DNA of 64,000 bases from an uncultured Chryseobacterium sp. (GCA_964394425.1 CAYMXP010000004.1:15874-79873), one strand, 5' to 3'. Shown: positions 57,506 to 63,430, counted from the first letter of the stretch. Notes: generated by a model from the letters alone, not told the origin. Translations and numbers: made by a program.

Positions 57506-58534
57506 TTTCAGCAGGGCTGCATCATACACCCGCCTCATCCCCTCCTCGATCGGGATCTTCGCCTTCCAGCCCAGGTTCTTTTCCACCCACGACATGTCAC
57601 AATAGCGGCTGTGTACGCCCACCGGCTTGTCGAGCAAGGGCTTGATCGTGGGCTTGTACCCGGCGAAGGAGCAGAACAGCTCGATCAGCTCGATGAAGGT
57701 GGTGAGCCGTCCCATGCCGATGTTGATCGCCCGCCCATCGCCGATCCTGTCCATGGCCAACAGGGTGAGGTCCAGCACGTCGTCGATGTGAACGAAGTCT
57801 CTGCCCTGCCGGCCCGTGCCCCATACCTCGAAGGGATCCTCCTTCCGCGCGGCGCGCGCCGCGATCGCCGGCACGGGATAGCTCAGGTCCTGGTCTTCCC
57901 CATACCCGCTGAAGGGCCGGATGCAGGTGACGTGTACGCCGTAGTGCTGCGCGGCGATCTTGGCGAGGAACTCGCCGGTGAGCTTGCTCCAGCCGTAGGT
58001 CATGTCCGGCTCGCCCATCCGCTTGAAGTCGATGTCGGTCTCCTTCAGTTGCAACGTGTTGCTTTCGGTCTGAAGGTCCACGGGATAGGCGGCGCTGCTG
58101 CTGGGATAGAGCAGCCGCCCGGGCTTGTTGCGGCAGCAGTAGAGGAACATCTCCGCGTCGATGCTCAGGTCCTGGGCCACCAGCATGGGATCGCCGTCGA
58201 TCTTGCTGCGGCCGCCCACGATGGCCGCGAAGTGGAAGAGGTCGGCAAAGCCCTCCACGTCCAGGCCGTAAGCCTTGCGGAAATGCGCCGGATCGCGGTT
58301 CAGCTCGCGCAGCACGTCGCGCAGGTCGGCCTTCAGGAAGAAGAGCCGGCCGCCGCCGTAGACCTCCAGGCCCCGCTCCTCCCCTTCCTTCTTCCACGGC
58401 GCCCAGTCCGAGGGGTGCGTGCCCACGCTCAGGTCGTCGATGAAGAGCACGCGGTCGCCCGTGGTGGCGTGCAGTCGCTTGACCATGTTGCGGCCCACGA
58501 AGCCGCATCCGCCGGTGACCAGGTGCGTGCGCAT
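57500..58534 (-). CDS. NAD-dependent epimerase/dehydratase (extended SDR)
   Basis: VTGGCGFVG Rossmann motif and the YGWSK catalytic Y-x-x-x-K. Start placed at ATG 58534 rather than the TTG of the track. Confidence 0.9.
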   Translation of the reverse strand: MRTHLVTGGCGFVGRNMVKRLHATTGDRVLFIDDLSVGTHPSDWAPWKKEGEERGLEVYGGGRLFFLKADLRDVLRELNRDPAHFRKAYGLDVEGFADLFHFAAIVGGRSKIDGDPMLVAQDLSIDAEMFLYCCRNKPGRLLYPSSSAAYPVDLQTESNTLQLKETDIDFKRMGEPDMTYGWSKLTGEFLAKIAAQHYGVHVTCIRPFSGYGEDQDLSYPVPAIAARAARKEDPFEVWGTGRQGRDFVHIDDVLDLTLLAMDRIGDGRAINIGMGRLTTFIELIELFCSFAGYKPTIKPLLDKPVGVHSRYCDMSWVEKNLGWKAKIPIEEGMRRVYDAALLKR

Positions 58535-58618
58535 CGGCGGCAAAGATGGAATTAGCGCGGCAGCTGCGATGGCGTACCTGCGGTTACGCGCTAACCATGC
58601 GCACTCCCGAGATGGGCC

Positions 58619-58756
58619 TCAGGGTCCCGAGGCGGAAACCCAGCGGCGGGAGAGTAGTGCAGGCCATGCATGTGTCATGAGCGCGTTGCGTTCCTCCACC
58701 ATGTCCTTGAAAGTGGAGGAGATAAAGACCCGGATGCGACGGTTCACGGTGGGCAT
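58619..58756 (-). pseudogene. truncated 5' fragment of a second DUF4062-type gene (45 codons)
   Basis: Hand translation gives MPTVNRRIRVFISSTFKDMVEERNALMTHAWPALLSRRWVSASGP*. It shares RVFISSTFKDM..ER..L.....P.L with residues 20-45 of the adjacent 1218-aa protein. Too short to appear in the ORF track. Confidence 0.6.
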
Positions 58757-58853
58757 GATTCACTCCATTTCTCGCACCTTCAATCACCGAATGCCACCTG
58801 GCGTTAGCTACTCAAACAACCCTTGGAACAACCGAGGCCAGGTGACGTACTGT

Positions 58854-61800
58854 TCATGCCCCGCGCAACTGACTCAAAAGTGATGAAAGTCGAGCACGCG
58901 TCTCGGGGTCATGCACTTGGTCGATGATCGTTGCGGCTTCTTTGGCCAACACACCGATCTTGCCAAACTCACTTGATTCAATATTGAAAACAATCGAATT
59001 AAGCAGTGCTCTACCAAGTTGATCCACGTCCTCGCTCTCTCTGGCTGTCGTCACCTGCTCTTCAAAGCATCCACGCGCATCATCCCAACGTTCGAGGAAT
59101 CGTGCAATTAGCCCGCTGGTTCCGAGCACGAATGCCAGCCGGTCCTTCCATTGATGCAGTTCACAGATTTGGCGCGCCCGCGTTGCGAGTCTCCAAGCTT
59201 CCTCCAGTCGATGGCGATCGGGAGACTGCATTGACATTTCCCACAAGAGCGTGGCCTCATTGGAAAGGACAAGCTGCTCGGCTTCGTCATCATGCAATCG
59301 TGAGGCTATTGTTCTCACATCCCGAAGCTTCATAAGCGCCTCTTCCATCCTCCCCATACGCTTCAGGGCACCAGCAAGATCCGACGAAGCGGCGAGCGCT
59401 TCAGCTTGTGCTCCGGCCTGCGTGGCCAGACTTTCAGCCTTCTCGAACTCATTGCATGCCTCATTCAAGCAGTTCTGCCCTAAGAGATCCCTACCGCGCG
59501 CTAACGCTCGTCGGGCCTCTATGGCCGCAGGCACCTCCTCACGCCTACCAAGACTCTGGAGGGCACTTGTGCTAGCATTGAGCTCCTGAGGCGATTGACG
59601 ACCCCTTCGCATCTTCACCTGCCCTTCCAAAGCAGCTCGCATTGCATCCGCCAACCCGATACGGCGCACCTCGTCAAGTATCTCCAACCGCTCATGCTCC
59701 TCGAATCTTGGCAGCAGGGCCGCTTGAACAGTAATACAATGGGCGATTAGGTCGGCTTCACCAAACTCTGCACTTTGCTTCAGGGCCAACTGGCTGCTTT
59801 CATACGCTCGAACCCATTCTTTCAAACGTGAATACGCATGCGCCATTCCGGCAACGGCAATAATCCTGCTTCGTACCAAGTCATACTTCGTTGCGACTTG
59901 CCCGGCCTCGGTAAAGTAATTCAGTGCCGTTTGCGGATCACCATGCCTCACCTGCAAACTTCCTTGGTTGTTGAGGCACTTTGCCACTCCTTCCCAATCC
60001 TCCATCTCCCTCGCTATCCCTTCTTCCTCAATATGAACTCTGTTGGCGTCCTCAACGCGCCCAAGCTGTGTAAGAATCCCAGCACAATTCGTTAGTGCGG
60101 CTCTGAGGTGGCGCCGGTTTCCGGTGCTTCTTGAGATCTTCGCGGCGTGTTGCGCGCAATCCAACGCTTTCTCGTGATTCCGATCAGCCATCCAGTACGC
60201 CACTTCTGAAAGAAGGCTTGATGCAGTTCCCTCTTGGTCCCCGTGCCGCTCACTGATCTTTCGCGCCCGCTGAATCAGGTCCAGCGCGGTTCCCCTGTGA
60301 CCAAGCCTAATATGAATGTCTGCCAATTGCTTGAACAAATGAGCATTGCCCGGAAAGTCCTCTTTCCCCTCCAATCGACGGATCAATTCGTCGGTAGCTA
60401 TGCGAGCAGCCTCCATATCGCCCAGATACCAACTCAATGACCCAATAGCGCCCAGAACCGGCAGATCGAGTGTGCTTGGTCTCTGTAAAAGTTGATGACA
60501 TGCGTCCTGCGGACTCATACCCGTGTGTTGTTGAATCTCCACCCACATCCGCCGGAGTGACGCTTCGTCAGAAAGTCCCAATCCACCGAAGTAAACAGGG
60601 CTTGACAGCAGTTCCTTCAATCGACTCCACTGCGCTGAGCCCTCCAAGTGCCAAGGAAGCTCTTCGATACTTCGTGCTTTCCCGATATGTATTTCGAAAT
60701 AATCAGCGAGGGAGGTATGTACGCCAATCTGCTCCTCTGGCTTGGACATGTAGCGAGCACGCACTGCTTCGAAAAATGCCGCGTGCGCAAAGCACAACAC
60801 CCCCGAATGATCAATCAAAACCCGCCCGAGAGCACATCGAATTGGCGCCCAGAGCGCAGCCGGAAGGCGCCTGGAACCAGTGCCCAGAACGTCCAACAAC
60901 TCCAGTTCTGAAAGACCGCGCCGAGCCGTGCCAAGGAAGCTCATTGAGTCCATTACCAGTCCAGGCCGGTCCCGCTCGTAGTCGCGCTCAAATCGCGACA
61001 GCATGAGCTGGAACAATTCTGACATCGAATTCGCCCGGAGGTAGTTTGACAGGCTGACGTCCAGAAGTTCTGGTTGCCCGAGGATCCGGATCTGGTCGAG
61101 TACAGTGCGCAGGTAAAGCGGGTTGGCGGTCGCAGCGCATGCGACTATCCGTTCGACACGTACGGGTTCCAACTCCTTCCGAAATCCTGAAAGGTATCGG
61201 CGGGTCACTTCGCTTCGCTCCGTCGCATCGAGGGGTGCGATGGACAAAACCGGCCAACCACGCCTCACGAGCGCGGCATGCACTCGGCCAGGCCCCGTAG
61301 CTACTATGACCCGCACTCCATCGGGAAATGTTTGAGGAAGCCACCGCAGGTCGTGGTCATCGGGGTTGTCCAGCTTATCGCAACCATCAAGGACGATGAG
61401 GATCCGCCCATTTGCTGCTCGCGTGACAGCCATGCCAAGAAACACCCTAAGTATGGCAGACCGATCCTCAATGTCACCGCCGAAATATCCTCCGCCGAAA
61501 CTGGAGCCCAGTTGATCGATCAGGCGAGCCAACAGCGCGGAAGCATTCGAACTAGTTGATGATGCGCCTACAACGTGGAAAACTGCGATCAGGTCCTGGT
61601 GAACTTGTTTGTAACGCAGAAACCAATTCGCAAGCAATGCCGATTTCCCTGACCCTGACGCGCCAGTTATCACGAGCGGTAAATCGTTCCCAGTCATGTG
61701 AGCGTCCAGGCGCTCTCCGTATTCCTCGCGCCCCACGTATGCGCCTTGACGTGCGCCATTCCCTACTTCAATCTCAGCAAGTTCCCAGGCGGCAGCTTCG

Positions 61801-62510
61801 TGAAGTGCGACTTCGCGTTCGACATGATCGGGACGCTGTTCTTCGGGGAAGAGGGAATCGATCAGTGCAGTGAAGTCCTCTAGGATCCATTTGCCTACCT
61901 CCTTGGGATCTGCATAAGGTTCGCGCAGTTGGCAGAGTCCTTCATCACGCGCCCGTCGGATCTTGTTCTTGAGTTGCTCTAGTTTCTCCGCTTGTTCCTC
62001 ATTCTCCGTTGCAAACTTCTGCCGTTCTTCTTCTGGCAAGGTCGCTGAGTAATTCGCATCACGGATGTAGAAGAAGGCGTGCGGTCGCATCTCTTCCATT
62101 CGCAGAACCCCATGGATAATTTCTAGTTCGGTCACAGAGCACCCCCCAACCACATGTTCCTGTAACCAGGGCTCGGTCTCGATCAGTTCCTGTGGGAGTT
62201 CATCAGGGATCCAGCCATAGCGCTCGCCAAGCAGGCCAATGAAATATGGCCGGCATCGATGGATCTCCTCGAGACAAATGGGCAGAACTTTCCCATCGGC
62301 TTTTTGCTCATCGGTCACACCCCATCGCAGATCCACTTCACCCCACGTCACACCGCGCGATTCACAGAGCTTGCGAAGCTGAGGGAATACCGAGAGCACA
62401 AGCTCGTCGCGCTCCCCTTGCATGTCTTTGAACGTCGAGGAGATGAAAACCCGAACGACCCGACGGACATTTCCTTTTGGAGGACTTAGGACAAGATCCA
62501 GTGTGCTCAT
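58854..62510 (-). CDS. NLR-like STAND NTPase: DUF4062-like N-terminal domain + NACHT-type P-loop NTPase + C-terminal TPR array
   Basis: N-terminus VRVFISSTFKDMQGERDELV...VDLRWGV...FIGLLGERYGWIP (DUF4062 pattern). Walker A ITGASGSGKS at nt 61641-61664. Walker B RILIVLDGCDKLD. The C-terminal ~500 aa are helical TPR-like repeats. No signal peptide or TM segment. Confidence 0.9.
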   Translation of the reverse strand: MSTLDLVLSPPKGNVRRVVRVFISSTFKDMQGERDELVLSVFPQLRKLCESRGVTWGEVDLRWGVTDEQKADGKVLPICLEEIHRCRPYFIGLLGERYGWIPDELPQELIETEPWLQEHVVGGCSVTELEIIHGVLRMEEMRPHAFFYIRDANYSATLPEEERQKFATENEEQAEKLEQLKNKIRRARDEGLCQLREPYADPKEVGKWILEDFTALIDSLFPEEQRPDHVEREVALHEAAAWELAEIEVGNGARQGAYVGREEYGERLDAHMTGNDLPLVITGASGSGKSALLANWFLRYKQVHQDLIAVFHVVGASSTSSNASALLARLIDQLGSSFGGGYFGGDIEDRSAILRVFLGMAVTRAANGRILIVLDGCDKLDNPDDHDLRWLPQTFPDGVRVIVATGPGRVHAALVRRGWPVLSIAPLDATERSEVTRRYLSGFRKELEPVRVERIVACAATANPLYLRTVLDQIRILGQPELLDVSLSNYLRANSMSELFQLMLSRFERDYERDRPGLVMDSMSFLGTARRGLSELELLDVLGTGSRRLPAALWAPIRCALGRVLIDHSGVLCFAHAAFFEAVRARYMSKPEEQIGVHTSLADYFEIHIGKARSIEELPWHLEGSAQWSRLKELLSSPVYFGGLGLSDEASLRRMWVEIQQHTGMSPQDACHQLLQRPSTLDLPVLGAIGSLSWYLGDMEAARIATDELIRRLEGKEDFPGNAHLFKQLADIHIRLGHRGTALDLIQRARKISERHGDQEGTASSLLSEVAYWMADRNHEKALDCAQHAAKISRSTGNRRHLRAALTNCAGILTQLGRVEDANRVHIEEEGIAREMEDWEGVAKCLNNQGSLQVRHGDPQTALNYFTEAGQVATKYDLVRSRIIAVAGMAHAYSRLKEWVRAYESSQLALKQSAEFGEADLIAHCITVQAALLPRFEEHERLEILDEVRRIGLADAMRAALEGQVKMRRGRQSPQELNASTSALQSLGRREEVPAAIEARRALARGRDLLGQNCLNEACNEFEKAESLATQAGAQAEALAASSDLAGALKRMGRMEEALMKLRDVRTIASRLHDDEAEQLVLSNEATLLWEMSMQSPDRHRLEEAWRLATRARQICELHQWKDRLAFVLGTSGLIARFLERWDDARGCFEEQVTTARESEDVDQLGRALLNSIVFNIESSEFGKIGVLAKEAATIIDQVHDPETRARLSSLLSQLRGA

Positions 62511-62669
62511 AACAATGCAGGCGGCGGCCGCAACAGGGATCTGTCGATCACCAGCAAAGCAATGTAGGTTTCGTTTCAGTACCTCAATACCAGCGTCATT
62601 CTACCTCGCTGGCTATCAGACTCCAAGCATGCACGCGTCGGTTATTCATGTAAGAACTGATATGGCATA

Positions 62670-63254
62670 TCAACACCTCACCACCCCCCACCCCACATTC
62701 GCCAGCATCTCCGGTATCTTCCTCACCGGATCACGGTCCATGTCCTTGTCCTGCTCGCTCAGTTGGTCGTAGGGCACGAGTTTGTCGTGGATCTTCAGCG
62801 CGTTGTTGCGCTCCGGGCCGTAGGTCCAGCCGCTGGCCATCTTCTCCTGCATCCAGCGGTCGTGCTCCATACGGGCAAGGCGTTCCACCTGATCAGGAGC
62901 GAAGGAGACCAGGGGTGCGTTCGCAGCGGCACGTTCGCAACGGTAGCCCAGGACCTTCAGCTTGCGCACGATGTCCATGGCCTGCATCCGGTTGCTGGCA
63001 CGATAATGCTCCGACAGCTCATCCCAAGGCACATCCGCTTCCTTGCCGGCGGCAGTTCCACGCTTGCTTCTCCAATCCTCGTGAATGGCTTGCGCAATTG
63101 GCTCGATCGCATCGAGCAGATGATCGCCGGCGCTCATGAGTTCCCGGAATCGCATGGGGTCCACGAAGTTGTCGAGCTCGCTTTCGGGGGGGAGGGATGC
63201 GCGCGTGTATCGACCATCGGATGAAGGTATCAATGCTGAGACAAGGCCGCACAT
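62670..63254 (-). CDS. RyR-domain protein (two RyR repeats)
   Basis: The second repeat LARMEHDRWMQEKMASGWTYGPERNNALKIHDKLVPYDQLSEQDKDMDRDPVRKIPEMLANVGWGV closely follows the ryanodine-receptor RyR repeat consensus. The first repeat is degenerate (IAQAIHEDW...VPWDELSEHYRASNRMQAMDIVRKLKVLGY). Start is uncertain (ATGs at 63254, 63155, 63137). Confidence 0.8.
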   Translation of the reverse strand: MCGLVSALIPSSDGRYTRASLPPESELDNFVDPMRFRELMSAGDHLLDAIEPIAQAIHEDWRSKRGTAAGKEADVPWDELSEHYRASNRMQAMDIVRKLKVLGYRCERAAANAPLVSFAPDQVERLARMEHDRWMQEKMASGWTYGPERNNALKIHDKLVPYDQLSEQDKDMDRDPVRKIPEMLANVGWGVVRC

Positions 63255-63430
63255 GGCGCTGGTGCCATTTCTTGCCCCCGCCGCAGGATCTCCGCCTCGG
63301 GACCCTGTTGACGATGTATAGGTGCGTATGCATCGACGGCAAAGATGGGATCGCTCCGCGAACGCTGTTCGACCTGGCAAACCCGCCCACGCACGTCACA
63401 CGGCTACCTTTGGGTTCCTTTTCAGAACCC

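Follow-up and report, generated by a model that had tools for sequence, protein, structure and literature searches.

We describe here a minus-strand open reading frame (ORF) for a pair of ryanodine-receptor (RyR) repeats near the end of a 64,000-nt stretch of DNA from an uncultured Chryseobacterium sp. (GCA_964394425.1, CAYMXP010000004.1:15874-79873), the whole of which is called the window and supplies all coordinates given without a locus name. An earlier note had presented positions 62,670 to 63,254 as a gene for a 160-195-aa protein of two RyR repeats and as a possible partner of the STAND gene beside it. The ORF is instead the truncated 3′ end of a PfkB-like/AAA+/RyR gene; we consider it likely that it is the relic of a nucleotide-sensing partner in a TIR/NIR cassette and that the STAND gene in this genome works alone. 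That the PfkB-like/AAA+/RyR family is genomically coupled to genes for TIR and TIR-like NADases is shown by the neighbourhoods of its members.

The ORF ends at a stop codon at 62670-62672 and has three in-frame starts, TTG 63380 (236 aa), ATG 63254 (194 aa) and ATG 63155 (161 aa), the last of which is the start picked by public gene callers (P0001). ORF residues are numbered below in the 236-codon frame from TTG 63380, and pocket residues in the 161-aa form. The nearest relatives of the ORF in genome contigs are long proteins, not small ones. Residues 4-236 align with the C-terminal 240 residues of an 807-aa protein from a Flavobacteriales metagenome-assembled genome (locus L006; 59% identity, E 4e-92), and the 161-aa core is 73% identical to that protein and 68% identical to the 833-aa protein of L007. 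Residues 37/38-75 match the pre-RyR linker of the L007 protein (residues 633-670; 55% identity, E 3e-10) as well as the linker in L006 (606-644) and in L049, and are colinear with P0026 (from residue 631), P0031 (from 613) and P0032 (from 497). From residue 37/38 onward the whole ORF is colinear with the C-terminal ~200 aa of proteins of 698-833 aa, with identities of 59% (L006), 62% (P0026), 55% (P0031) and 50% (P0032). A hidden Markov model (HMM) of the N-terminal part of AAA-RyR proteins matches the ORF by its last 34 positions only (i-E 0.003), ORF residues 1-36 found no match in comparisons with the long AAA-RyR relatives, and neither HMM nor alignment revealed AAA or PfkB-like coding sequence upstream of the ORF in any frame. 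A maximum-likelihood tree built from 75 RyR modules puts the window copy with the fused forms of L006 and L007 (support 100/98); the next branches are the stand-alone form of L059 and the fused form of L009.

Colinear homology over the linker and RyR pair (50-73% identity, about 200 aa) together with the tree position places the ORF in the PfkB-like/AAA+/RyR family, and of the full three-module architecture (about 700-950 aa) the linker and the RyR pair alone remain. By this homology the ORF is the last ~200 codons of a gene of ~810-890 codons, and not a native stand-alone gene. Starts that would give products of 161 and 194 aa do exist, as had been proposed, but homologous coding sequence continues upstream of all ATGs, through an in-frame segment at 63156-63272 (minus strand) that contains ATG 63254 and resembles the AAA-RyR linker, and the ORF is therefore not a native gene of 160-195 aa. 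The remaining in-frame leader (63273-63380, minus strand), which runs up to the TTG, crosses the border repeats described below and corresponds to the unmatched residues 1-36, was not part of the original gene.

The domain content of the ORF is clear. Pfam PF02026 matches it in two stretches at 85.2 bits against a cut-off of 27.4 (E 3.8e-24), which bears out the two repeats first noticed, and repeat 2 spans positions 20-89 of the 91 in the profile. The tandem, Repeat12-like module of 161 aa (62670-63155, minus strand) was delimited by Pfam, by sequence matches in the PDB, by structure prediction and by conservation across the 75 modules, with repeat 1 at about 62928-63098 and repeat 2 at about 62682-62891. 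A phmmer search of the PDB returned the repeats of RyR1, RyR2 and RyR3 (down to E 2.8e-25) and a RyR-like protein of Bacteroides thetaiotaomicron, which matches repeat 2 at about 1e-11. An AlphaFold2 model of the 161-aa form (pLDDT 87.3, pTM 0.75) has a predicted two-repeat, Repeat12-type helical fold, and the top Foldseek matches to this model are crystal structures of RyR Repeat12 (R12), with template-modelling (TM) scores of 0.64-0.73 and probability 1.0, among them RyR3 R12 in complex with ADP, ATP and dantrolene. PADLOC and NCBIfam scans gave no match for the ORF.

In the long relatives Pfam detects a weak AAA domain (PF00004) and RyR. For one of them, P0024 (831 aa; L007 5991-8492), an AlphaFold2 model (pLDDT 86.4, pTM 0.88) was compared with known folds by Foldseek, which indicates an N-terminal domain like PfkB/ribokinase kinases (3n1c, 4n09; TM about 0.46-0.48), a ClpB/Skd3/ClpX-like AAA+ module and an R12-like RyR pair. 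The name PfkB-like is owed to this fold search alone, since the N-terminal 670 aa of the AAA-RyR protein had no match by sequence in the PDB and its N-terminal 400 aa none in Pfam. Residues 1-~380 of P0024 resemble phosphofructokinase-2 and adenosine kinase type enzymes in the predicted fold, and a kinase fold joined to a putative sensor of ADP-ribose (ADPR) hints that the signal may undergo modification. Among 5.8 billion proteins searched there were about 50 clusters of the PfkB-like/AAA+/RyR family, which carry only the names ‘hypothetical’, ‘RyR domain-containing’ or ‘AAA family ATPase’. Also recurrent in the neighbourhood is a protein of ~515-660 aa with a weak nucleoside-deoxyribosyltransferase-like (NDT-like) N-terminal domain and DUF4231/SLATT_1 membrane helices, whose gene lies directly upstream of the AAA-RyR genes in L006, L007, L009 and L142-L146. 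PADLOC had no match for the AAA-RyR, TrkA_N-RyR or SLATT-like proteins. Depending on the locus, RyR is fused to AAA+, TrkA_N, a nucleotide cyclase or an NDT-like domain (the last in L063), and such varied output modules on one small domain are as expected of a ligand sensor. In L069 (5460-7883, P0013) a single RyR repeat is joined to TPR-S and an adenylate/guanylate cyclase domain.

The ligand that RyR domains may sense is suggested by recent work on phage proteins. Binding of TIR-made isomers of cyclic ADPR (cADPR) by the RyR fold was demonstrated in 2026, for phage anti-defence proteins only. RyDEP of mycobacteriophage DyoEdafos (Lopez Rivera et al. 2026, PMC13232231) cleaves 2′/3′cADPR and holds ADPR through H75, W78, H100 and D117, and other phage homologues act as nanomolar sponges (PMC13232231). 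RyR Tad (gp68 of Pectobacterium phage vB_PatP_CB1) binds 3′cADPR (Kd 43 nM), 2′cADPR and cADPR through H129/W132, K147/H154 and K170/D171 (10.64898/2026.06.04.730250). The earlier remark that no function is assigned to bacterial RyR domains is thus out of date for the phage members. In the window protein the putative pocket lies in repeat 2 and comprises H98, W101, R116, H123 and D140, of which H98 is conserved in 100%, W101 in 95% and D140 in 91% of the 75 cellular modules. Repeat 2 has the His, Trp (+3), His (+25), Asp (+42) pattern of RyDEP and RyR Tad, an equivalence drawn from published residue numbers and spacing and the family alignment, with no direct RyDEP alignment. In repeat 1 the His and an aromatic residue are retained and the Asp is replaced by N55, so that there is probably one complete pocket only. 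Six of eight phage homologues with the conserved residues bind without cleaving (PMC13232231), and sequence is thus no guide to cleavage.

Beyond the pocket, the window protein shares with RyDEP the PF02026 domain, the R12-like helical fold and the spacing of the ligand residues (H75/W78/H100/D117 against H98/W101/H123/D140). RyDEP is, however, a phage-encoded anti-Thoeris homodimer of single repeats, while the window ORF encodes a covalent tandem pair of cellular, PfkB-like/AAA+/RyR descent with a full pocket in repeat 2 only. The residues of RyR Tad find equivalents in H98/W101, R116/H123 and M139/D140, the Lys beside the Asp being Met here, whereas RyR Tad itself is a dimeric phage sponge with an unrelated N-terminal domain. 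Could the RyR gene be of phage origin, an anti-defence gene for a sponge or glycosidase of the RyDEP/RyR Tad kind that has stayed in the chromosome? The RyR-domain proteins of phages counteract Thoeris and the gene sits in a foreign islet of lower GC, yet its nearest relatives are cellular AAA-RyR proteins (73% and 68% identity), identity among the 40 phage matches listed does not exceed 44% and covers one repeat, the phage proteins are single-repeat homodimers as opposed to a tandem pair, and there are no phage genes among those of the islet. On the strength of the closer cellular relatives, the tandem pair and the lack of phage genes in the islet we rejected this origin, which we judge very improbable. 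Repeat12 (and Repeat34) of the animal receptors gives the best sequence and structure matches, forms the same kind of tandem-repeat pseudo-dimer and has an adenine-nucleotide/dantrolene pocket; it differs in belonging to a 5000-aa Ca2+ channel, in having longer repeats with inserts and in showing no cis link to TIR. The B. thetaiotaomicron RyR-like protein (PDB 3NRT, 6UAG) is likewise a bacterial PF02026 protein, of 100 aa and a single repeat.

Gene neighbourhoods were surveyed in two directions, from 53 RyR loci with one genome per species and from 80 metagenome loci with DUF4062-NACHT genes, picked without regard to RyR. The TIR and SLATT HMMs were small and home-made (Pfam agreed with them on more than 20 proteins), and the association figures are lower bounds because such HMMs miss divergent members; all figures are raw counts with no matched control genes as background. 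With pieces of the window STAND protein as tblastn queries, DUF4062(-NACHT) sequence was found within 8 kb in 9 of the 53 RyR loci, which belong to Bacteroidota, Pseudomonadota, Verrucomicrobiota, Acidobacteriota, Gemmatimonadota, a deltaproteobacterium and a Methanoregulaceae archaeon. By HMM, TIR_2 or DUF4062 was present in 28/53 RyR loci, or 19/43 once the mycobacteria were collapsed, and some RyR loci also hold SLATT-type membrane proteins. In the other direction a RyR module was found in 20 of the 80 DUF4062-NACHT loci. Among the 75 with enough flank, a RyR ORF ends on the same strand within 300 nt upstream in eight and within 1.2 kb upstream in 12, and 12 of the 28 loci that have at least 5 kb of upstream flank contain a RyR module somewhere. 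The association whose absence would have counted against a partnership was therefore found from both sides, RyR recurring by DUF4062-NACHT and by TIR-STAND genes alike.

Among members of the window's clade the RyR protein is constant and the downstream partner varies: the partner is DUF4062-NACHT in the window and L006, TIR_2-NB-ARC-TPR in L007 and L008, TIR_2-NPHP3_N in L144, a plain TIR in L059 and TPR-TIR_2 with DUF4062-NACHT in L009. Intact pairs are separated by 0-90 nt or overlap (e.g., L006, L007, L008, L059, L082, L127 and L128), and Pfam confirms TIR_2 in the partner proteins. Proteins of ~600 aa with TrkA_N and RyR in Mycolicibacter and Mycobacterium adjoin TIR_2-PknH_C genes, and others adjoin CHASE2-TIR_2, TIR_2-NACHT-TPR or TPR-TIR_2 genes. 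The constant neighbour of RyR is a TIR-type enzyme, not one particular sensor, and the RyR side of such pairs is usually a long PfkB-like/AAA+/RyR or TrkA_N/RyR protein, not a RyR-only one. A functional partnership of the RyR and STAND families is well supported by these observations, so that the idea of RyR as a STAND partner stands at the level of the families; the window copy, however, is a 5′-truncated remnant of one of the long proteins.

In another reading the RyR gene is a passenger with no relation to the STAND gene, the two kinds of gene meeting in defence islands without a shared pathway. In its favour, most STAND relatives are without a RyR neighbour, the loci hold several TIR and STAND genes packed together, and in several of them the distances are 1-6 kb. 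We find this reading improbable in view of the immediate, co-oriented adjacency, with some stop/start overlaps, in many independent lineages including an archaeon, of a partner that is always TIR or TIR-like though its sensor part varies (STAND-TPR, WD40, PknH_C, CHASE2), and of the phage RyR domains, which bind exactly the products of TIR enzymes.

The gene that adjoins the relic encodes a DUF4062(NIR)-NACHT-TPR STAND protein of 1218 aa (58854-62510, minus strand), identified by Pfam and by alignment of DUF4062 domains. It shares the strand of the RyR ORF, as had been noted, and the spacer from the RyR stop to its ATG at 62510 is 159 nt (62511-62669), close to the 160 nt given before. The DUF4062 (NIR) domain is a TIR-like NADase, with ADPR and nicotinamide as its products (10.64898/2026.05.01.722283; 10.64898/2026.09.04.749371). 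E130 of the window protein (in SVTELEI) is a Glu invariant across the aligned DUF4062 domains, and by analogy with E108 of PsAvs2 it is a candidate catalytic residue. Swarozyc (10.64898/2026.05.01.722283) and PsAvs2 (10.64898/2026.09.04.749371) have the same DUF4062(NIR)-STAND-TPR architecture with the conserved NIR Glu and differ in being single-gene systems; PsAvs2, a NIR-STAND-TPR protein, defends as a single gene (10.64898/2026.09.04.749371), and a RyR partner is not mentioned in the DUF4062 papers searched, including these two. The proportion of STAND relatives with no RyR neighbour is 75-89%, and since most relatives lack one, the STAND gene needs no RyR partner. By analogy it most likely acts autonomously as an NAD+-depleting abortive-infection receptor, like PsAvs2. 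That RyR remnants upstream of STAND genes do occur can be seen from L067, which holds an independently degraded example: a 113-aa RyR remnant (198-539) that begins inside repeat 1, has a deletion in the repeat-2 loop and ends 18 nt upstream of an intact DUF4062-NACHT-TPR gene whose product is 47% identical to the window's STAND protein.

In intact relatives the genes form a cassette. An NDT-like/SLATT (DUF4231) membrane protein is encoded upstream, the PfkB-like/AAA+/RyR protein follows, and a STAND protein with a TIR_2 or DUF4062/NIR NADase is encoded downstream. In the scheme that we propose the TIR-like STAND protein would sense infection and cleave NAD+, the RyR pocket (H/W/H/D) would read an NAD-derived product of the neighbouring enzyme, and the ligand-bound RyR domain would drive the AAA+ module and the SLATT membrane effector. 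Type VII Thoeris, in which a TIR enzyme signals through cADPR to a SLATT effector (10.64898/2025.12.03.692087), offers a parallel, as in intact relatives of the window locus, too, a TIR-type enzyme is found together with a SLATT-type membrane protein and a module that is a candidate nucleotide binder; the difference is that here the TIR-like domain is part of a STAND receptor and an AAA+ protein intervenes, and that the window is without the SLATT and AAA+ parts. The window has a TIR-like DUF4062 gene next to a RyR module that is a plausible signal binder. The window ORF itself has no output domain, let alone a killing domain of the Thoeris kind, SLATT and AAA+ being found in relatives only; nor is it a phage-type single-repeat homodimer, being a tandem pair of cellular ancestry. 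In this genome the putative ligand-binding module alone survives, and the remnant, if translated from ATG 63254 or 63155, would at most bind or buffer ADPR-type nucleotides; by analogy with the phage proteins it may survive as a soluble ADPR/cADPR binder.

A wider proposal builds on this, and we put it forward tentatively, leaning somewhat against it as a whole. Cellular RyR proteins would form the receptor arm of a widespread, undescribed family of TIR/NIR signalling systems in bacteria and archaea, comparable to Thoeris, with the RyR pocket reading an NAD-derived nucleotide. Judging from domain composition, its forms could include PfkB-like/AAA+/RyR proteins with SLATT partners, TrkA_N/RyR proteins by TIR_2-PknH_C or CHASE2-TIR_2, RyR-cyclases and NDT-like/RyR fusions. 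RyDEP and RyR Tad would then be stolen copies of host sensors, the window copy a host-encoded buffer for the NIR-STAND protein, and animal Repeat12 a descendant of a cADPR/ADPR sensor. A systematic survey of TIR signalling, as far as searched, does not mention RyR and describes no Thoeris type with a RyR sensor; TIRs inside Avs/STAND proteins were left out of it (10.64898/2025.12.03.692087). Within the literature searched PF02026 occurs in two papers only, and we found no report of a cellular RyR/TIR pairing.

The borders of the region bear on the truncation as well. The RyR ORF lies at the edge of a lower-GC islet, as had been pointed out, with GC of 0.54-0.60 inside against about 0.65 outside. 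A 31-bp inverted repeat (58620-58650 and 63277-63307, 90% complementary) brackets it, the left arm abutting the end of homology of a 45-codon stub of a second DUF4062 gene (58619-58756, minus strand; called by gene callers, DUF4062 HMM E 2.5e-12, aligned residues 4-36) and the right arm abutting the end of RyR homology. These homologies stop at about 58652 for the stub and about 63270 for RyR, within a few bases of the arms, which if joined would give a 62-bp palindrome. Since the RyR gene and the second DUF4062 gene are both cut at the repeat arms, the islet is a captured fragment, and from these end-points the foreign segment is about 58652-63272 (4.6 kb), with a gene cut at each end. An assembly artefact at the junctions was ruled out by five independent assemblies (L001-L005; 99.98-100% identity over 5.2 kb) and by a 7.3-kb contig of run X3 that crosses the islet at even depth. 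In run X3 the 31-mers of the right arm are in excess, at 2-5x local depth, and the right-arm sequence is therefore multi-copy somewhere in the community or genome. Just outside the arms is a 32-bp direct repeat, present at 58521-58552, over the beginning of the epimerase gene, and again at 63320-63351 (88% identity). The duplicated bases are the epimerase start codon and the 18 that precede it; among them is CATCTTTG, which resembles the Bacteroidota -7 promoter box. The second copy of the repeat is directed into the islet and could act as a promoter for the RyR remnant. RNA-library contigs cover the RyR ORF region (62772-63185, 63194-63399) and run across the spacer (61803-62695, 62590-62809) at a depth of 3-7, like the flanks, and DNA carry-over is possible; they are weak evidence of expression of the remnant and of a possible co-transcription with the STAND gene. 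A promoter and terminator scan of the locus gave nothing above shuffled expectation and no convincing terminator in the spacer.

Several of these observations do not sit easily with an inert relic beside a self-sufficient STAND gene. The window RyR ORF is intact with its pocket unmutated, and low-depth RNA contigs cover it. Stand-alone two-repeat RyR genes exist in its own clade (L059 3078-3536, L011, L061), which makes a short RyR product not implausible and allows that the remnant might be kept for a function. Part of the association counted above could stem from the clustering of defence genes in islands and not from a shared pathway. The product shown so far for DUF4062 is linear ADPR only, with no dedicated signal (10.64898/2026.05.01.722283; 10.64898/2026.09.04.749371), and ligand binding is established in the phage RyR proteins, the cellular pocket being assigned by residue likeness. 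We infer that foreign DNA was captured at a broken palindrome, which would explain the borders but does not account for the extra 32-bp direct repeat.

It is fair to ask whether the remnant is a working stand-alone partner, a soluble RyR pair of 161-194 aa made from an internal ATG that binds or hydrolyses ADPR-type NADase products and serves as a buffer or threshold-setter, or as an adaptor of the STAND protein. The complete R12 fold (pLDDT 87), the full set of pocket residues, the RNA contigs over ORF and spacer, and the copy of the epimerase promoter-like box with its ATG just upstream all speak for this, as do the genuine stand-alone RyR pairs of 152-170 aa that adjoin RyR-effector and TIR genes elsewhere (L059, L018/19, L011, L061). 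The linker homology to long proteins is nevertheless colinear upstream of both ATGs, the opposite end of the islet is also a cut gene, and the gap is 159 nt as against the 0-90 nt or overlaps of intact operons; moreover, sequestration of ADPR would not relieve NAD+ depletion, so that the benefit is doubtful, and the available copies, at 99.98-100% identity, are uninformative on selection. We therefore regard a working partner as rather unlikely. For annotation of this genome the RyR ORF is best entered as a truncated gene, in preference to a stand-alone RyR protein.

It has long been asked whether animal ryanodine receptors respond directly to cADPR. The natural cellular gene pairs seen here, in which a RyR domain stands beside TIR or TIR-like NADases, extend over at least ten phyla and archaea. 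If RyR is the receptor in them, they would constitute a new class of NAD-derived signalling systems and would offer tractable pairs of ligand and receptor with which to ask for which ligand the Repeat12 pocket evolved. They also indicate that NIR/DUF4062-STAND proteins, treated so far as self-contained NAD+ depleters, can sit in multi-gene circuits.

Some further loci deserve mention. In L025, L028, L030, L036 and L044 the TrkA_N-RyR gene is divergent from, or in tandem with, a gene in which TIR_2 is joined to the extracellular PknH_C sensor domain, and this mycobacterial pair looks like a conserved two-gene signalling module and not a mobile defence island. An intact cassette is found in L142 (6457-15783; JGI 3300009873, Ga0131077_10001016) and L143, where genes for a SLATT-like protein of 515 aa, a PfkB/AAA/RyR protein of 813 aa and a 134-aa ORF are followed by TIR genes, namely a convergent TIR_2-STAND-TPR gene of 1420 aa and a TIR_2 gene of 153 aa. 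This cassette adjoins a formate-tetrahydrofolate ligase (FTHFS) gene, shares its GC and both of its source samples with the window's contig, and possibly represents a second RyR system, complete in this case, of the window's organism. A RyR/TIR island lies directly downstream of the FTHFS gene in L006 (2663-4339), L142 (3582-5258) and L144 (1109-2785), and because three Flavobacteriales-type contigs share that position, a conserved integration hotspot is suggested.

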